NCBI GenBank assembly: GCA_016839765.1
Contig: JAEOTP010000090.1
Coordinates: 1-31,403 of the forward strand
From: Promethearchaeota archaeon
Lineage (GTDB): Archaea > Asgardarchaeota > Lokiarchaeia > Sigyniarchaeales > SOKP01
Length of the DNA: 31,403 bases
Direction of reading: 5' to 3'
How positions within the stretch are numbered: the first letter of the stretch is position 1; each line of letters starts with the position of its first letter. The notes beneath the pieces are model-generated. The model saw only the letters and a list, made by a program, of their open reading frames with translations, was not told the origin of the DNA and searched no databases. Shown in pieces: positions 6,536-12,571 of the stretch. A program made the position numbers and the translations under genes.

Positions 6536-6718
6536 ATGAGTTTAAAATGTAGTGGATGCGGTAAAATTGTTGAAACTCTCCCATTAGATTGTGGTTATAG
6601 CATTTCATTTAATGAAGAAAAGAACCAATGGGAATGTTATATGGAAAATTGTGGGTTTATATCATTTACAGAGTTCCTATGTGAAAATTGCTGTAAAAAT
6701 AGAGGAAATAAATCATAA
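6536..6718 (+). CDS. Small Cys-rich putative Zn-binding protein
   Basis: 8 Cys in 60 aa (CSGC...C...CxxxxC...CxxCC); AAGGTGA RBS upstream; T tract downstream. Confidence 0.75.
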   Translation: MSLKCSGCGKIVETLPLDCGYSISFNEEKNQWECYMENCGFISFTEFLCENCCKNRGNKS

Positions 6719-6802: not shown

Positions 6803-7168
6803 TTAAAACCATTGAGTAGCGTCTGCATCTAATACTAAATCATTCAATGTCGCGGCTCCTACTATTTTTACTCCTGAAATAAGATCAACTTTTTCCCAAC
6901 CTAACATTCTTTTTGAGGCTTCACAAACTAAAATTTTAATCCCCATTCCTAAAGTTTTGTCAATCATTTCTTTTACACTTGGAAAAGATCCAAGCTTAAT
7001 CCTCTCAGCTTCTCCAGGTTTCAATATTCTTAATCCAGGCCCCAAGTAATAAATTGTTGGATCTAGATCCATTGCTTTGGCAGTTTGTGCTAACACTAAT
7101 GGAGAATATTGACGTTCTGGATCATCACTTGTTTGAACATATAAAATTGATTTTTTTTCTTTACTCAT
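6803..7168 (-). CDS. DsrE family protein
   Basis: PLVLAQTAKAM, LVCEAS (conserved Cys), IVGAATL; typical length. Confidence 0.85.
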   Translation of the reverse strand: MSKEKKSILYVQTSDDPERQYSPLVLAQTAKAMDLDPTIYYLGPGLRILKPGEAERIKLGSFPSVKEMIDKTLGMGIKILVCEASKRMLGWEKVDLISGVKIVGAATLNDLVLDADATQWF

Positions 7169-7220
7169 GTATTTTCAACTCCAAATTGTAATTAAAATAA
7201 AAAGGGTGGTTACTCAATTC

Positions 7221-7478
7221 TTAAATAAGACTTTCAAAAATGCTTATACGTTTATCTGCTTTCCCCTTAGATTTTCTAATGAAATTCTTCTCTTGAAGCT
7301 TTCTTAAAGCATAAGCAACTGTACGTTTAGGAAGAAGTGTTTTGTTCAAAATCTCCCTCTCCTCTAAAGGACCTCTTTGCTTTAGTAAATACAGAATAAA
7401 TTTACTTGATGGAGATAAGGAAAACAAGTCGTTTTTTTCTTCATAACTTGTGATAAAATATAAATCCTCTACTATCAT
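7221..7478 (-). CDS. Small winged-helix (MarR/TrmB-like) regulator
   Basis: LSPSSKFILYLL...TLLPKRTVAYALRKL...DKR; AGGTGG RBS. Confidence 0.82.
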   Translation of the reverse strand: MIVEDLYFITSYEEKNDLFSLSPSSKFILYLLKQRGPLEEREILNKTLLPKRTVAYALRKLQEKNFIRKSKGKADKRISIFESLI

Positions 7479-7557
7479 TTAACCACCTATGTTGAAATAA
7501 TATAGCTATTTATTTAATTGTTCAATTTATAAAAAATAATAATCTTATATAATATTT

Positions 7558-7591
7558 ACCTAATTGAATAAACTTAAACAATCAATTAGGT
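7558..7591. promoter_or_regulatory. Perfect 10-bp inverted repeat next to a TATA-like element
   Basis: ACCTAATTGA-N14-TCAATTAGGT upstream of the wHTH-dsrE genes. Confidence 0.5.
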
Positions 7592-7624
7592 TTCAGTTTC
7601 AATCTAAAACATTATTTGATTTTT

Positions 7625-7641
7625 AGTTTCAAATTGAAACT
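7625..7641. promoter_or_regulatory. 17-bp palindromic putative operator, with a degenerate copy at 7595-7611
   Basis: AGTTTCAA-A-TTGAAACT; the copy AGTTTCAATCTAAAACA lies 30 bp away. Confidence 0.5.
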
Positions 7642-7682
7642 CAATTATAAATATAAAAATATTGTTAATAAAAGGAGTTTTA

Positions 7683-8246
7683 TCAAAAATTGCCACATCC
7701 ATCACATTTACCATCTAAAAAAGCTTCACATTCATTACATATGTTTCCACATTTAACTTCTTGACTTTTTTTACTAAAAAGATTCAGCGGAAGAAACTCT
7801 GGAGTTTTTAAGTTAGAGATAAATAATATCTCCGAATGTAAAATGCCATCTTTATTAGTAGGGCCGCAATAGTTTATATATCTGTGTAAGACATCTATGT
7901 TTTGACCAATTATGCCCATTATTAGATTATATTGACCTGTGATTTGGGCCAAAATAAAAATTCTCGGACAATCAGAATATGCTTTGATGATTTTCTTAAC
8001 CTCATCATAATTTTTCATTTCTAAGAGGATCAAACAGGCTTTATAATCTATTTCATTAATATTAATATTTCCTTGAATCTTGAGAATTTTTGAATTTTTT
8101 AATTTTTTAATTCGTTTTTTAACACCTGTATGGCTCATAATAGATTGATCTGTTTTAGTTACTTTCTCTCCGATATCGATTAAATTTTCTCGTCCATTTT
8201 TAAATAGAATATTTATAATTTGCTTATCGATATTATCTAACTTCAT
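7683..8246 (-). CDS. Lrp/AsnC family regulator with C-terminal Cys cluster
   Basis: LDNIDKQII...KRIKKL HTH; ITGQYNL RAM domain; tail CGNICNECEAFLDGKCDGC. Confidence 0.88.
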   Translation of the reverse strand: MKLDNIDKQIINILFKNGRENLIDIGEKVTKTDQSIMSHTGVKKRIKKLKNSKILKIQGNININEIDYKACLILLEMKNYDEVKKIIKAYSDCPRIFILAQITGQYNLIMGIIGQNIDVLHRYINYCGPTNKDGILHSEILFISNLKTPEFLPLNLFSKKSQEVKCGNICNECEAFLDGKCDGCGNF

Positions 8247-8335
8247 AATATAATTAATATAATTATTAATATTAAAAAAAAAGTTAATTGTTATAGAAAT
8301 ATCTCTGTTTAATTTAATAGGAGATTAATTTATAG

Positions 8336-8350
8336 ATGCAAAAATTGCAT
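8336..8350. promoter_or_regulatory. Putative Lrp-type operator upstream of the lrp gene
   Basis: ATGCAAAAATTGCAT = TGYA-W5-TRCA. Confidence 0.55.
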
Positions 8351-8541
8351 TTAACCTTATAAATTTTAAAGACTCATATTCAAAAAAAGGAAAAATTAAA
8401 TTCAATTTATTATTGGATTCAACCCTTAACGAATTTCTTTGTATTATGACTTACTTGTTTATTTTATTATAGGATTGAATTTTTTTTTCTTTTTCTCTTT
8501 TTCTTTTTACAGGATTGAAGATAAATTATCATATATATAAA

Positions 8542-9489
8542 TTATTTTGAATAATGCTCTTTCTCGGGATGTATTTCTTTTATAAATCTAAAATCGAAAA
8601 TATTTTTCATCTTAAATCTTCTTTTTATATACCCTAATTTAAAAAGAATTTTAACAAACTCCATTGTAGCATTTAAATATGCTTTTGAAATTCCAGCACA
8701 ATACTTTGGGGATATTTTTATCACAGCTTCAGCATAGTCTTTATTAAAAATTCTGAACGATGAAGCTATTTTTCTAGCTGCTAAGGATGGTGAATTCCGA
8801 AGTAAATTAGAAGCTTCTTTATGACGCTTTAAAAATTTAGATATTAATTCTTCATGATCTTCAATAAAATTGTCACGAATAAAAATACCATAACTAGGAT
8901 TATTTGCCCATAACTTTTCAGGAGGAATTATTAAATGAGATTTTAAGATGGTCGATGCAAATATTGCTAATGCCGGAGTTCCAACTCCAGCCGTTAACCT
9001 ATTTTCCTTTATATCAATAGCAATAAATTCTGCTTGTTTATAATGCCGTACTTTTACTTTTTCTAATAAATTGTATTTTTTTAAATAATGGTTTAATATA
9101 ACTTCATGAATGGACCCTCTACTAGGAACGCCAATAACTTTTCCTTTGAATTGCTTAAACACTTTAGTTAAATTATTATTTAATTGGCTTAAGCTCTTGG
9201 TTTCTTGTTTCGCAACCATAATTGTACCTTCAACATGGCCTCCTGCAACGCATTTAATAGGAACTCCTTTATCTATACCTATTATTGCCGGAGGTAAACC
9301 CATATATCCTATATCTAATACTTCGTTTTCAAATGCTTTAACCATTGCTGGGCCCGTTCCAAATAAAATCCAATTAAAACCTAAGTTAAGATCGTTTTTT
9401 AACTTTTCATCTGCCATCATGACAAAATTAGTATGGTAAGCTGTTGAAAGATGCCCAATATTTAATTGATTCTTTTTAATTAATATCAC
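8542..9489 (-). CDS. NitT/TauT/NMT1-THI5-like substrate-binding-fold protein, no signal peptide
   Basis: FGTGPAM, LDIGYMGLPPAI, GKVIGVPSRGSIH; no hydrophobic N-terminus; GTG start uncertain. Confidence 0.85.
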   Translation of the reverse strand: MILIKKNQLNIGHLSTAYHTNFVMMADEKLKNDLNLGFNWILFGTGPAMVKAFENEVLDIGYMGLPPAIIGIDKGVPIKCVAGGHVEGTIMVAKQETKSLSQLNNNLTKVFKQFKGKVIGVPSRGSIHEVILNHYLKKYNLLEKVKVRHYKQAEFIAIDIKENRLTAGVGTPALAIFASTILKSHLIIPPEKLWANNPSYGIFIRDNFIEDHEELISKFLKRHKEASNLLRNSPSLAARKIASSFRIFNKDYAEAVIKISPKYCAGISKAYLNATMEFVKILFKLGYIKRRFKMKNIFDFRFIKEIHPEKEHYSK

Positions 9490-9510
9490 TTATATATTTG
9501 AATAGAGATT

Positions 9511-9525
9511 TTGCAAAAAATGCAC
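9511..9525. promoter_or_regulatory. Putative Lrp-type operator upstream of the SBP-fold gene
   Basis: TTGCAAAAAATGCAC = TGYA-W5-TRCA. Confidence 0.55.
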
Positions 9526-9600
9526 TTAAACTTAAATTTCATAATCAAAATTATTATTTAGTCAAATTTATTTTATAAAAATGAATTTATTTAAAATTTA

Positions 9601-9615
9601 CTGCAATATTTACAC
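9601..9615. promoter_or_regulatory. Putative Lrp-type operator upstream of the moaD/SAMP gene
   Basis: CTGCAATATTTACAC = TGYA-W5-TRCA. Confidence 0.55.
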
Positions 9616-9617
9616 TA

Positions 9618-9914
9618 TTGATTAAAATGTTTGATGTAAAAATAGTATTTTTATCAACATTAGTAGATATTACAGGAAAATCTGAAATTTTAATCTCTGT
9701 AGAGGAGTATTACAACATCCAGCAATTAATAGAAATTCTAATTTCAAAATTCGGAATAAATTTTAAACAAATTATGTTTAATTCTAGTGGAAATTTGAAT
9801 AGGTATCTCATTATAAGTATAAATGGTAAAGATATACGCTCTATTGATAATTTAGGTACTATTATTCATCAAGGGGACGAGATCACTTTTCTTCCTGCTA
9901 TAGCCGGTGGATAA
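9618..9914 (+). CDS. MoaD/ThiS/SAMP ubiquitin-like sulfur carrier
   Basis: INGKDI...GDEITFLPAIAGG with free C-terminal GG; alternative start ATG 9627. Confidence 0.92.
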   Translation: MIKMFDVKIVFLSTLVDITGKSEILISVEEYYNIQQLIEILISKFGINFKQIMFNSSGNLNRYLIISINGKDIRSIDNLGTIIHQGDEITFLPAIAGG

Positions 9915-9920
9915 CATAAT

Positions 9921-10190
9921 TTAGATTTTTTTTAATCTTAATTCCCATTCTTCTGCTCCCTTTTTAGGATTTACTAGTCTTACATCTAATAATTCCGCTA
10001 AACTTTGCCGCTTACAATTTTCAGGTACATTTTTTACAGCAGAACGAAAATCTAATAAAACTTCTAAGATTTCTCCTGTTTTTAATTTTTCAAGTGCTAA
10101 TTTTGTATAGACAAAAGTCATTGGACACATCAGGCCTCTGATATCAAGATGTTTAACAGTTTTTGAATTTATACTATTATTTACTGACAG
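9921..10190 (-). CDS. TusA/SirA family sulfur carrier, probable CTG start
   Basis: Frame stays open upstream of ATG 10130 and gives HLDIRGLMCPM (LDxxGxxCP); GGGAGGAG lies 7 nt before CTG at 10190; in-frame TAA two codons upstream. Confidence 0.88.
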   Translation of the reverse strand: MSVNNSINSKTVKHLDIRGLMCPMTFVYTKLALEKLKTGEILEVLLDFRSAVKNVPENCKRQSLAELLDVRLVNPKKGAEEWELRLKKI

Positions 10191-10987
10191 ATATTACTCC
10201 TCCCATAATCTGATTTTTCAACTAAATCAATAGCATCTTTTTTACATGCTAAACAATCTGGATTTTTATATAAATCAATGAAATTAAAACTATACTTTAA
10301 AAGGTCTACATATAAAATCCTATTAATTATTAAATCTCCAATATCTAAAATATATTTAATTGCTTCATTTGCCTCAAGGCATCCCATAACCCCAGGAATT
10401 AAACCAATTACTCCTGCTTGAGAACAGGACATTCTTTCATCACCAATGGTAACATCACCAAAAACGCATCTATAGCAAGCAGTTTCTTTTTCAGGGATAA
10501 CTGTTATTATCTGACCATGGAACCGTAAGACTCCAGCAATAGTAAACGGTATTCCTAAATTTATACAAGTATCATTAGTCAACATTTTTGTGGGAATATT
10601 ATCAGAACCTTCTATCACAAAATTGGAGCCTTTCAAAAGTTCTTTTGAGTTAGATGATGTTATTCTTTCATTTATTATTTCTATATCACAATCAGGATTC
10701 AATAACTTTAATTTTTGAAAAGCACTATAAGTCTTCTTTCTATGAATATCATTTGTATAATGAAGTATCTGGCGATGTAAATTTGAAGATTCAACTCTAT
10801 CAAAATCAATAATTCTTAAATTACCAATACCTGCTGCTGTTAAATAATATGCTACCGGGGATCCCAAAGCACCTAAACCAATTAAGGTAATTTTCGAAGA
10901 TAATAACTTTTCTTGGCCAATTCCCCCAACTTCTTTTAATACAATTTGTCTTGAGTACCTTTCAATTTGTTCTTCAGATAATTCCAT
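10181..10987 (-). CDS. ThiF/MoeB/UbaA E1-like adenylyltransferase
   Basis: RYSRQI, GLGALGS, DFDRVESSNLHRQ, CYRC, SCSQAGV (catalytic Cys), CLAC; no rhodanese domain. Confidence 0.94.
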   Translation of the reverse strand: MELSEEQIERYSRQIVLKEVGGIGQEKLLSSKITLIGLGALGSPVAYYLTAAGIGNLRIIDFDRVESSNLHRQILHYTNDIHRKKTYSAFQKLKLLNPDCDIEIINERITSSNSKELLKGSNFVIEGSDNIPTKMLTNDTCINLGIPFTIAGVLRFHGQIITVIPEKETACYRCVFGDVTIGDERMSCSQAGVIGLIPGVMGCLEANEAIKYILDIGDLIINRILYVDLLKYSFNFIDLYKNPDCLACKKDAIDLVEKSDYGRSNICQ

Positions 10988-11047: not shown

Positions 11048-11062
11048 GTGCAATAATTACAA
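11048..11062. promoter_or_regulatory. Putative Lrp-type operator upstream of the moeB-like gene
   Basis: GTGCAATAATTACAA = TGYA-W5-TRCA; a one-mismatch copy lies at 10989-11003. Confidence 0.55.
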
Positions 11063-11623: not shown

Positions 11624-12571
11624 CTAAAAAGGGAATCTTTTTATTTTATCAATAGTCTCTGAATCAAATTTAGAAAGAGCATAAGATGCCACAGGCACGA
11701 TGCACCCACAATTTTCACATAATAGTGGTGAATTACCCATTACGCAGAATTTCCGTTGACCATTAGGGTAATAACTTTTTACACCTCCCATTTTAAAAAT
11801 GCAATATGGTACAAACTCTTTTGTAATGTATAATTCAAGCATTTTCTTAGAAATTAAAATAAAATTACCATAATCGCTCATAACTTTTAGTATACTCCCA
11901 GCTACAGATTTCATTTTTTCTCCCTTTACTAATAAGGGATCATTTGGATATCCTGTATACATTAAAAAGAATATACCTGAGACGCCTACCTCATAGGCAA
12001 TTTTTACTACGCTTTCAACTTCTTTATAATTTAATGCTGTTATGGTGGTGGATATTAATACCCTTTTATCGTCTTCAATGTTTTCAATTACTTTATGAAA
12101 AATATTTGCGCCCCGAATAGAATTGTGCATTTCTTCTCCACCATCCAGACTTACCCAATAAACAGGTTGTTTATGATGCTTAAACCATGGTAATTTTAAA
12201 ATCCCATTTGAAGCAATCTGTACAGAGGGAAAAAGTTTTACAGCTTTATGTAATAAACCCATTCTAAGAGTAGGCTCTCCTCCAGTTAACGATGCACTTA
12301 TGATCCCCATATCACTATGATGTTGAAATACATTAAGCCATTGTTCATCTGTTAACTCTTTTCTACTTTTTGCTGAATTATTCCTCAATTCTTTAGCAGA
12401 AGCTATGAAATAACAATGTTTACATCTTAAATTGCACTGCCATGTTAAATCATAGTTTACACCTAAAGGAATTTTCCTTGCTCTGTATTTTAAAAAATAG
12501 AATCCCCCTAAGATTCCTTTTCTAATATTTTCTAAAGTCAGTAATTTAGGCTTGGAGTTCGAGCTTACCAC
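11624..12571 (-). CDS. Radical SAM protein with C-terminal Cys cluster
   Basis: CNLRCKHC, TGGEP, VSLDG; C-terminal C...CVMG...CENCGC. Confidence 0.92.
   Translation of the reverse strand: MVSSNSKPKLLTLENIRKGILGGFYFLKYRARKIPLGVNYDLTWQCNLRCKHCYFIASAKELRNNSAKSRKELTDEQWLNVFQHHSDMGIISASLTGGEPTLRMGLLHKAVKLFPSVQIASNGILKLPWFKHHKQPVYWVSLDGGEEMHNSIRGANIFHKVIENIEDDKRVLISTTITALNYKEVESVVKIAYEVGVSGIFFLMYTGYPNDPLLVKGEKMKSVAGSILKVMSDYGNFILISKKMLELYITKEFVPYCIFKMGGVKSYYPNGQRKFCVMGNSPLLCENCGCIVPVASYALSKFDSETIDKIKRFPF

Follow-up and report, generated by a model that had tools for sequence, protein, structure and literature searches.

The window analyzed here is a 31,403-nucleotide contig (C79) from the 3.32 Mb, 95.9% complete genome of a low-GC, Loki-type (Promethearchaeia) Asgard archaeon, called G000 below. 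Between positions 6803 and 12571, gene calls combined with Pfam and NCBIfam scans of the window's open reading frames (ORFs) confirmed the coordinates of a cluster that holds a MoaD/ThiS-family sulfur carrier, an E1-type activating enzyme, the persulfide carrier TusA and a protein with the substrate-binding-protein (SBP) fold of SsuA and TauA. The seven genes named by a first-pass annotation of this stretch lie where it had placed them, with the domains it had assigned. We agree with that annotation that the locus encodes an undescribed sulfur-carrier module, and that the SBP-fold protein could be the acceptor of the carrier's sulfur; it is the best partner candidate that our comparisons yield. 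The genes and elements are as follows:

6803-7168, minus strand: DsrE-family gene (PF02635, 49.8 bits), a loose neighbour outside the core
7221-7478, minus strand: MarR-type winged helix-turn-helix (HTH) gene (PF01047, 39.8 bits), a loose neighbour
7683-8246, minus strand: Lrp/AsnC-type regulator with a five-cysteine C-terminal tail (PF13404, 27.6 bits)
8337-8349: operator box 1 (TGCAAAAATTGCA), upstream of the Lrp gene
8542-9489, minus strand: SsuA/TauA/THI5-fold (NMT1_2) protein of 315 aa without a signal sequence (PF13379, 62.5 bits), here the SBP-fold protein
9512-9524: operator box 2, in the SBP/MoaD divergent promoter
9602-9614: operator box 3, in the same divergent promoter, directly upstream of the MoaD start
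9618-9914, plus strand: MoaD/ThiS-family carrier ending ...LPAIAGG-stop (PF02597 and TIGR01687)
9921-10130 as annotated, or 9921-10190 with a CTG start, minus strand: TusA persulfide carrier (PF01206, 52.6 bits)
10181-10987, minus strand: ThiF/MoeB/UbaA-type E1 without a rhodanese domain (PF00899, 234.8 bits)
11049-11061: operator box 4, upstream of the E1-TusA operon
11624-12571, minus strand: radical SAM protein, a variable neighbour

The remaining genes of the window encode a B12 acyl-CoA mutase set, an acyl-CoA dehydrogenase, electron transfer flavoprotein, longin and coiled-coil proteins, and the like. No known thiocarboxylate acceptor lies among them, and the earlier remark that the usual acceptors are missing is borne out: MoaE, ThiG, NcsA/TtuA, CysM, JAMM and AOR were not found among window ORFs of at least 90 aa.

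The carrier, the E1 and TusA

Family membership shows what the E1, the Gly-Gly carrier and the persulfide carrier would do together, namely make a protein thiocarboxylate. The E1 would adenylate the C-terminal Gly-Gly of the MoaD-type carrier, and TusA would deliver persulfide sulfur, as a fused rhodanese does in bacteria, to yield the carrier thiocarboxylate. The carrier joins a beta-grasp match to a free C-terminal Gly-Gly, which places it in the MoaD/ThiS family (PF02597, 40.6 bits against a cut-off of 22.5; TIGR01687, 62.6 bits against 49.5), and its translation probably begins at the ATG at 9627. The free terminus is kept in 27 of 29 orthologues that are linked to an SBP-fold gene. In two Freyarchaeia loci (L089, L090) the SBP-linked carrier ends in GGFGS or GGSNG and would therefore need C-terminal processing; the carrier of a third Freyarchaeia locus ends in free Gly-Gly. 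The E1 covers profile positions 1-237 of the 238 in PF00899, as expected of a ThiF/MoeB member. Apart from this E1 and the window carrier, G000 has five ThiF-family and seven ThiS-family genes. An E1 with a C-terminal rhodanese domain is the MoeZ/Uba4 architecture, which makes thiocarboxylates. Bacterial counterparts of the window E1 have that domain and the window E1 does not; TusA replaces it in archaea.

TusA carries the Cys-Pro motif of its family, with LDIRGLMCPMTF encoded in frame, and its start deserves comment. The annotated ATG (10130) would cut off the conserved LDIRG (D-x-R-G) strand, which lies upstream of the only NTG codon: on the minus strand, the tusA frame from 10130 to 10215 encodes VKHLDIRGL 5' of the sole ATG, with no ATG, GTG or TTG upstream. 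Read further upstream, the frame contains no stop as far as a CTG (10190-10188) that stands 6 nt after a GGAGGAG within the 3' end of the E1 gene. The tusA gene of the closest relative, G272, likewise lacks an NTG start, and the other relatives begin with ATG and encode proteins of 87-94 aa with the same N-terminus. The window tusA probably uses a non-canonical start.

Linkage, operator boxes and the extent of the module

We compared the cluster with 34 related Asgard loci from five families (f1, f7, f9, f19 of Hermodarchaeia and f21 of Freyarchaeia), whose genes were clustered; genes of fetched loci were called as longest ORFs, and such calls are noisy in high-GC bacteria. Across the five families, 33 of the 34 loci have a MoaD-like gene immediately beside the SBP-fold gene, a linkage far beyond chance. 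Its geometry varies: the pair is head-to-head in f1, tail-to-tail in f9 and f19, and co-directional in f21, with a gap of 3-14 bp or an overlap. In the window the two divergent genes are only 128 bp apart. The pair is joined by E1 and TusA in 20-21 loci, which all belong to f1 and f7; in the distant families (f9, f19, f21) neither gene lies within 8 kb of it. The Cys-tailed Lrp gene adjoins the SBP-fold gene in 12 of the 34 loci. MarR is found in eight and DsrE near the core in four to five (over 35 loci, DsrE and MarR go with the core in about five), and the radical SAM gene stands at the core only in the three closest relatives, with two 56-57% paralogues elsewhere in G000.

The distribution of a 13-bp palindrome, TGYA-W5-TRCA, follows the same lines. 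Four copies occur in the 31.4 kb, where 0.33 were expected, and none of 100 shuffles reached four. All of them lie in promoters of the cluster, namely those of the Lrp gene, the SBP/MoaD divergent region (two copies) and the E1 gene, so that the shared operator motif reported in the first-pass annotation is real; none precedes the DsrE, MarR or radical SAM gene. The motif recurs in relatives upstream of Lrp (L040, L042), in the MoaD/SBP intergenic region (L099) and upstream of E1 (L038, L042, L043, L099). On the basis of neighbourhood conservation, the unit is made up of Lrp, the SBP-fold protein, the carrier, TusA and E1, and this same set carries the operator boxes. DsrE, MarR and the radical SAM protein are variable neighbours, poorly conserved with the core and without the operator, and the original grouping of seven genes into a single unit was too broad. 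The radical SAM protein, once suggested as an acceptor of the thiocarboxylate, is rejected on its restriction to the three closest relatives, its two paralogues and its lack of an operator.

The Cys-tailed Lrp is likely the module's regulator, as the boxes and gene order suggest. Its score against the NCBIfam LysM-type model (43.9 bits) is below the cut-off. The C-terminal tail, CGN(I/V/M)C-x2-CEA(F/Y)L-x-G-x-C-x-GCG, with the spacing C-x3-C-x2-C-x7-C-x2-C, is invariant in 11 orthologues. The protein would bind the palindromes at its own gene, at SBP/MoaD and at E1-TusA, and might thereby tie their expression to sulfur, Fe-S or redox status.

The window DsrE protein is a DsrE-family member, and falls far short of the specific DsrE2 subtype (34 bits against an equivalog cut-off of 210). 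A paralogue 80% identical to it lies in a TusA-DsrE-IscS-IscU operon (C17:75160-77852), which suggests that the window gene arose by duplication of a relay component associated with a cysteine desulfurase. Convergent with the 3' end of the DsrE gene, at 6536-6718 on the plus strand, lies a gene for a 60-aa protein with ten cysteines and no family match, 92-97% identical in L042 and L199.

The window has a minimal form of four genes, which is widespread among relatives (L038, L044, L048-L050, L095, L097, L101). Others carry insertions between MoaD and TusA, which consist of a thiolase alone, CysE-CysK, or IscU. In G272, CysE-CysK-IscU and a PP-loop thiolase all stand there; G000 has none of these genes at this position, and tblastn found no orthologue of the PP-loop/NFACT-R thiolase or of CysK anywhere in G000. 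The inserted thiolase, about 340 aa long, couples a ThiI-like PP-loop domain containing conserved cysteines to an RNA-binding NFACT-R_2 domain (L041:9422-10459, between MoaD and TusA), with equivalents in L039, L040, L043, L045, L046, L091 and L199; from its domains it is probably an uncharacterised RNA thiolase. Between G000 and G272, the flanks are 89-90% identical in DNA and the proteins Lrp, E1 and DsrE are 94%, 93% and 97% identical. The SBP-MoaD segment is only 71% identical (proteins 68% and 58%). Because of this drop against its flanks, we read the SBP-MoaD pair as a cassette that has been exchanged as such.

Across 42 genomes of the genus, the SBP-fold gene occurs in 23-24 and the E1 orthologue in 24, and these are the same genomes bar one or two fragmented assemblies. 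Both genes are present in about 23 genomes and both are missing from 17, many of which are 98-100% complete. The E1 is dedicated to the module, and the module is accessory. It is not the housekeeping tRNA-thiolation set, because about 40% of the species of the genus lack E1 and the SBP-fold gene together. Nor is it the ordinary molybdopterin set, because MoaE, MoaC and MoeA gave no match in the 95.9% complete G000, in searches in which control genomes gave matches. The genes are linked in relatives, and the outcome that would have reduced the locus to one of these ordinary sets with partners elsewhere, as the first-pass annotation had allowed, is not what we find.

Two observations on molybdopterin genes may be added. 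G000 has eight AOR (tungstopterin) genes with no MoaE, MoaC or MoeA detected, and MoaE is present in 12 of the 41 other genomes of the genus. We also considered the SBP-fold protein as a replacement for MoaE and rejected the idea, as the two co-occur in f9 (3 of 3), in f21 (6 of 6), in most of g22 and in ten g1 genomes.

A more conventional explanation is that the carrier and E1 are an ordinary SAMP/UbaA-type pair serving tRNA 2-thiolation, with NcsA encoded elsewhere, or protein conjugation, next to an unrelated SBP-fold gene. Consistent with this, G000 has one NcsA/TtuA-type gene (C91), the carrier scores against the SAMP1 and Urm1-like models, and eight relatives have the PP-loop RNA thiolase within the module. 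However, G000 itself lacks that thiolase, 17 genomes of the genus do without the module, and G000 has the five other E1 and seven other ThiS-family genes. The SAMP1 and UbaA equivalog scores (40.4 bits against 60 for the carrier; 252 bits against 450 for the E1) are below their NCBIfam cut-offs, and the adjacency of SBP-fold protein and carrier is conserved across domains. We therefore regard this explanation as very improbable. Conjugation in particular, which had also been raised for the module, is unlikely: the JAMM genes of G000 lie beside other E1 genes (C33, C17) and none is linked to this one, and a rhodanese fused to E1, as in the bacterial loci, or a supply of sulfur by TusA, as in archaea, are hallmarks of thiocarboxylate formation.

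The SBP-fold protein and its candidate reactions

The AlphaFold model of the SBP-fold protein (pLDDT 90.8) has its best fold matches in TauA, 3un6, SsuA and THI5, with the desulfinase DszB at rank 46; TM-scores are 0.72-0.80, at sequence identities of 13-17%. The fold itself therefore fits a binding protein of an SsuA/TauA importer. We reject that role, as the N-terminus leads directly into strand 1 and leaves no room for a signal sequence, Pfam and ORF scans of the window found no ABC permease or ATPase gene, and the NCBIfam score against TIGR01728 (79 bits) is below the cut-off of 163.5. There is precedent for catalysis by SBP-fold proteins in the cytoplasm, in the hydroxymethylpyrimidine phosphate (HMP-P) synthase THI5 and in DszB. 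A THI5-type role is nevertheless rejected, because neither alignment has an invariant or near-invariant lysine and because ThiC is present (612.8 bits).

Across Asgard, methanogen and bacterial members, 27 residues are invariant, among them a cysteine, several histidines, tyrosine and tryptophan. They contribute to a set of family motifs (an N-terminal YHT, KC-x-AGGH-x-EG, GSIH, NPSYG, SPKYC and a C-terminal HP-x3-HY), and when mapped through the alignment they appear to sit on the cleft-lining loops of the SsuA/TauA fold. In the solved structure of TauA, the sulfonate is held mainly by main-chain amides of Gly-rich loops (PMC6906117); the corresponding loops are, by alignment, probably among the invariant positions of the SBP-fold family. 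No fused form of at least 553 aa was found at E <= 1e-20, and seeming MoaD-SBP fusions in high-GC loci proved to be ORF-calling artefacts in another frame.

A profile scan of GTDB species representatives recovered 501 SBP-fold loci. They are spread over Thermodesulfobacteriota, Syntrophobacteria, Methanosarcinales, ANME-2, Methanoperedens, Methanothrix, Methanoregula, Methanocella, Methanobacterium, Methanomassiliicoccales, Bathyarchaeia, Hecatella and Jord-, Hermod- and Freyarchaeia, and everywhere the proteins are annotated as 'ABC transporter substrate-binding protein'. The commonest Pfam family among immediate neighbours is ThiS (18 of 142 neighbours, from 75 loci of methanogens, Bathyarchaeia and Thermodesulfobacteriota); the next families are lineage-specific. 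A profile hidden Markov model of the Asgard carriers detected an adjacent MoaD in 26 of 76 non-Asgard loci. In bacteria the SBP-fold gene shares an operon with MoaD and an E1-rhodanese gene, in the order E1-rhodanese, MoaD, SBP-fold gene (L120, L121, L124). Methanothrix loci repeat the Asgard layout: some combine the SBP-fold gene with E1, TusA, CysK, CysE, a PP-loop thiolase and a sulfite-reductase-like gene, and others have the order MetY-MetX-MoaD-SBP. A literature search returned no description of a MoaD/SsuA-fold pairing.

Two other arrangements of the gene stand out. In ANME-2/Methanosarcinales (L139:3550-5774, L177:5856-8083) a histidinol dehydrogenase gene overlaps the start of the SBP-fold gene, with no MoaD nearby, and the two appear, from the overlap, to be translationally coupled. 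In Methanoregula (L197:7557-8927, L179:7488-8924) an XRE-type HTH gene lies upstream of the SBP-fold gene within a coenzyme M cluster; in L197 the two read as one 456-aa ORF, which is either a real fusion or an assembly error.

To our knowledge, each characterised ThiS/MoaD-type carrier has a dedicated client, be it ThiG, MoaE, CysM, MetY or TtuA. The conserved pairing, its exchange as a cassette, the operon of three genes in bacteria and the distribution of invariant residues lead us to propose, tentatively and at somewhat less than even odds, that the SBP-fold protein is an enzyme that uses the carrier thiocarboxylate on a small sulfonate-type substrate. It would be the carrier's dedicated client and the functional counterpart of MoaE, ThiG or CysM, holding a small anionic substrate in the cleft between its lobes and receiving the thiocarboxylate sulfur there.

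The methanogens point to a possible substrate. MMP16 (ComF, COG1900) is the primary coenzyme M (CoM) synthase (Chadwick et al. 2025, PMC12068725); the S1 table of that study lists Methanoregula boonei with cysteate synthase and comDE and without mmp16, and in Methanosarcina MMP16 has the position that the SBP-fold gene has in the L178 operon. That operon, from Bathyarchaeia, contains overlapping genes for cysteate synthase, ComDE and the SBP-fold protein. In Hecatella, cysteate synthase (537 bits against an NCBIfam cut-off of 325) and a fused ComDE adjoin the SBP-fold gene, as cysteate synthase and comDE do in Methanoregula; in Methanomassiliicoccales cysteate synthase is 1.2 kb away, and in Asgard f9 ComDE abuts the gene. 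Among 91 Methanoregulaceae genomes, nine have cysteate synthase without MMP16, and all nine have the SBP-fold gene, 3-4 kb from cysteate synthase. It is present in five of the 24 genomes with both cysteate synthase and MMP16, distant or on another contig, and in none of the 58 without cysteate synthase. The presence of the gene beside CoM genes in nine of nine such genomes suggests that the SBP-fold protein may act as an alternative CoM synthase in MMP16-less Methanoregulaceae. No MMP16 or COG1900 domain was detected in Bathyarchaeia and Hecatella, whose metagenome-assembled genomes are small, and genomes of Methanothrix and Methanomassiliicoccales have both MMP16 and the SBP-fold gene. The most concrete candidate for the reaction is thiolation of sulfoacetaldehyde to a CoM-type thiol, which has good comparative support in some methanogens and stays hypothetical in G000.

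An alternative is a role in sensing, in which the SBP-fold protein would be a cytoplasmic sensor of CoM, another sulfonate or a sulfur oxyanion that gates sulfur-carrier and thiol genes together with Lrp or an XRE-type HTH. The HTH-SBP operon is conserved in Methanoregula with a 4-nt spacer, an Lrp gene is adjacent in the 12 Asgard loci noted above, and the PDB matches include the C-terminal domains of CmpC/NrtC, which belong to the known class of cytosolic SBP-like regulatory domains. A sensor would leave unexplained the near-universal adjacency to MoaD in three orientations, including loci free of regulators, as well as the bacterial E1-rhodanese-MoaD-SBP operons and the presence of the gene in Methanoregulaceae that have cysteate synthase and lack MMP16. 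The density of invariant Cys, His and Tyr would also be unusual for a sensor. We consider a sensing role unlikely.

It is equally conceivable, and in our estimate just as doubtful, that the SBP-fold protein works on the input side, binding thiosulfate, sulfite or a sulfonate in order to feed sulfur to TusA, the rhodanese and the carrier, or sequestering or delivering sulfite, for instance for cysteate synthase, with the trio of E1, TusA and carrier as a general sulfur supply for the Cys, Fe-S and tRNA-thiolation genes that relatives carry as insertions. The genes inserted between MoaD and TusA in relatives are consumers of sulfur (PP-loop/NFACT-R thiolase, CysE-CysK, IscU), and the SBP-fold gene is the constant; relatives of the fold bind SO3-bearing anions. 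Several neighbours, a number of them identified by eye, are related to sulfite: Sat, CysH and TauE in L100, TauE-type genes in L171 and L197, and a small sulfite-reductase-like gene beside E1 in L168 and L170; cysteate synthase itself consumes sulfite. However, the E1-rhodanese fusion and TusA already give sulfur a point of entry, and input-side binding does not account for the complementarity with MMP16.

Several findings weigh against a client enzyme that thiolates a sulfonate. The relatives compared are phylogenetically non-independent samples, and the nine Methanoregulaceae genomes may represent one evolutionary event. In 50 of the 76 non-Asgard loci, no MoaD was detected adjacent to the SBP-fold gene, and the Methanoregula HTH-SBP operon, with its possible fusion, fits a ligand sensor. 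The pattern expected of a CoM synthase, clustering plus a distribution complementary to that of MMP16, is seen in Methanoregulaceae, Bathyarchaeia and Hecatella, and not in the Asgard genus. There, MMP16 is present in 38 of 42 genomes irrespective of the module, and ComD does not track it (10 of 24 module-positive against 5 of 18 module-negative genomes); on these grounds we reject the module as a substitute for MMP16 in these Asgards. G000 has ComD (194.9 bits, C87) and MMP16 (459 bits against a cut-off of 364, C50), and profile searches found no ComA, cysteate synthase or McrA. As it lacks both cysteate synthase and ComA, G000 has no known route to the proposed substrate. A broader version of the proposal, in which the module is a second, COG1900-independent route to CoM or a related sulfonate thiol that Loki-type Asgards make as a cofactor or redox buffer, and serves as a regulated parallel pathway supplied with persulfide, seems to us improbable.

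The sulfonate genes of G000 are of interest apart from the module. At C50:57403-58701, C87:11476-12530 and C6:70604-72076, this genome without McrA encodes MMP16, ComD and ComE over cut-off and an L-ASST-type COG1900-CBS protein, and beside MMP16 lies a gene for a 579-aa acetolactate-synthase-like thiamine-diphosphate enzyme. The presence of ComDE, MMP16 and the module without methyl-CoM reductase raises the questions of which sulfonate thiol these Asgards make, and why.

Comparison with known systems

The module shares elements with several characterised systems. With molybdopterin synthase (MoaD-MoaE and MoeB) it has in common a MoaD carrier over the TIGR01687 cut-off and a MoeB-like E1; it differs in that G000 is without MoaE, MoaC and MoeA and in that MoaE co-occurs with the SBP-fold protein elsewhere in Asgard archaea. 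The Cys-Pro motif of TusA and the DsrE neighbour recall the TusA/DsrE relays, namely the Tus system and the TusA-DsrE2/3 proteins of sulfur oxidisers. However, DsrE is not conserved with the core here, and no Dsr, Hdr or MnmA gene is linked. SsuA/TauA, THI5 and DszB share the fold of the SBP-fold protein and its Gly-rich anion-binding loops, whereas the SBP-fold protein scores below the SsuA cut-off, has motifs of its own, and lacks a signal, a permease, an ATPase and the pyridoxal phosphate (PLP) lysine of THI5.

The likeness to MMP16/ComF is one of candidate reaction and gene position: the SBP-fold protein would likewise thiolate sulfoacetaldehyde, and in Bathyarchaeia, Hecatella and the MMP16-less Methanoregulaceae its gene stands where MMP16 would be, beside cysteate synthase and comDE. 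The folds are unrelated, the donor here would be a protein thiocarboxylate, and MMP16 coexists with the module in the Asgard genus. For MMP16-less methanogens such as Methanoregula boonei, the SBP-fold protein is a concrete candidate CoM synthase.

Further parallels are MoeZ(R)-CysO-CysM of Mycobacterium tuberculosis and HcyF-HcyS-MetY of Wolinella succinogenes, which carry out protein-thiocarboxylate-dependent synthesis of cysteine and homocysteine. Like them, the module has an E1, a rhodanese-type input (here TusA, in trans), a Gly-Gly carrier and an adjacent candidate client, and relatives of the window module have CysE/CysK or MetX/MetY inside or beside it. What sets the module apart is that its constant candidate client has an SsuA/TauA fold instead of being a PLP enzyme. 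It also has no linked JAMM gene, and G000 has no CysK, CysE or MetX near it. If our proposal is correct, an SsuA-fold client would be a new class of enzyme for sulfur insertion. The bacterial operon of E1-rhodanese, MoaD and SBP-fold gene has the very layout of MoeZ-CysO-CysM, in which the third gene encodes the acceptor enzyme.

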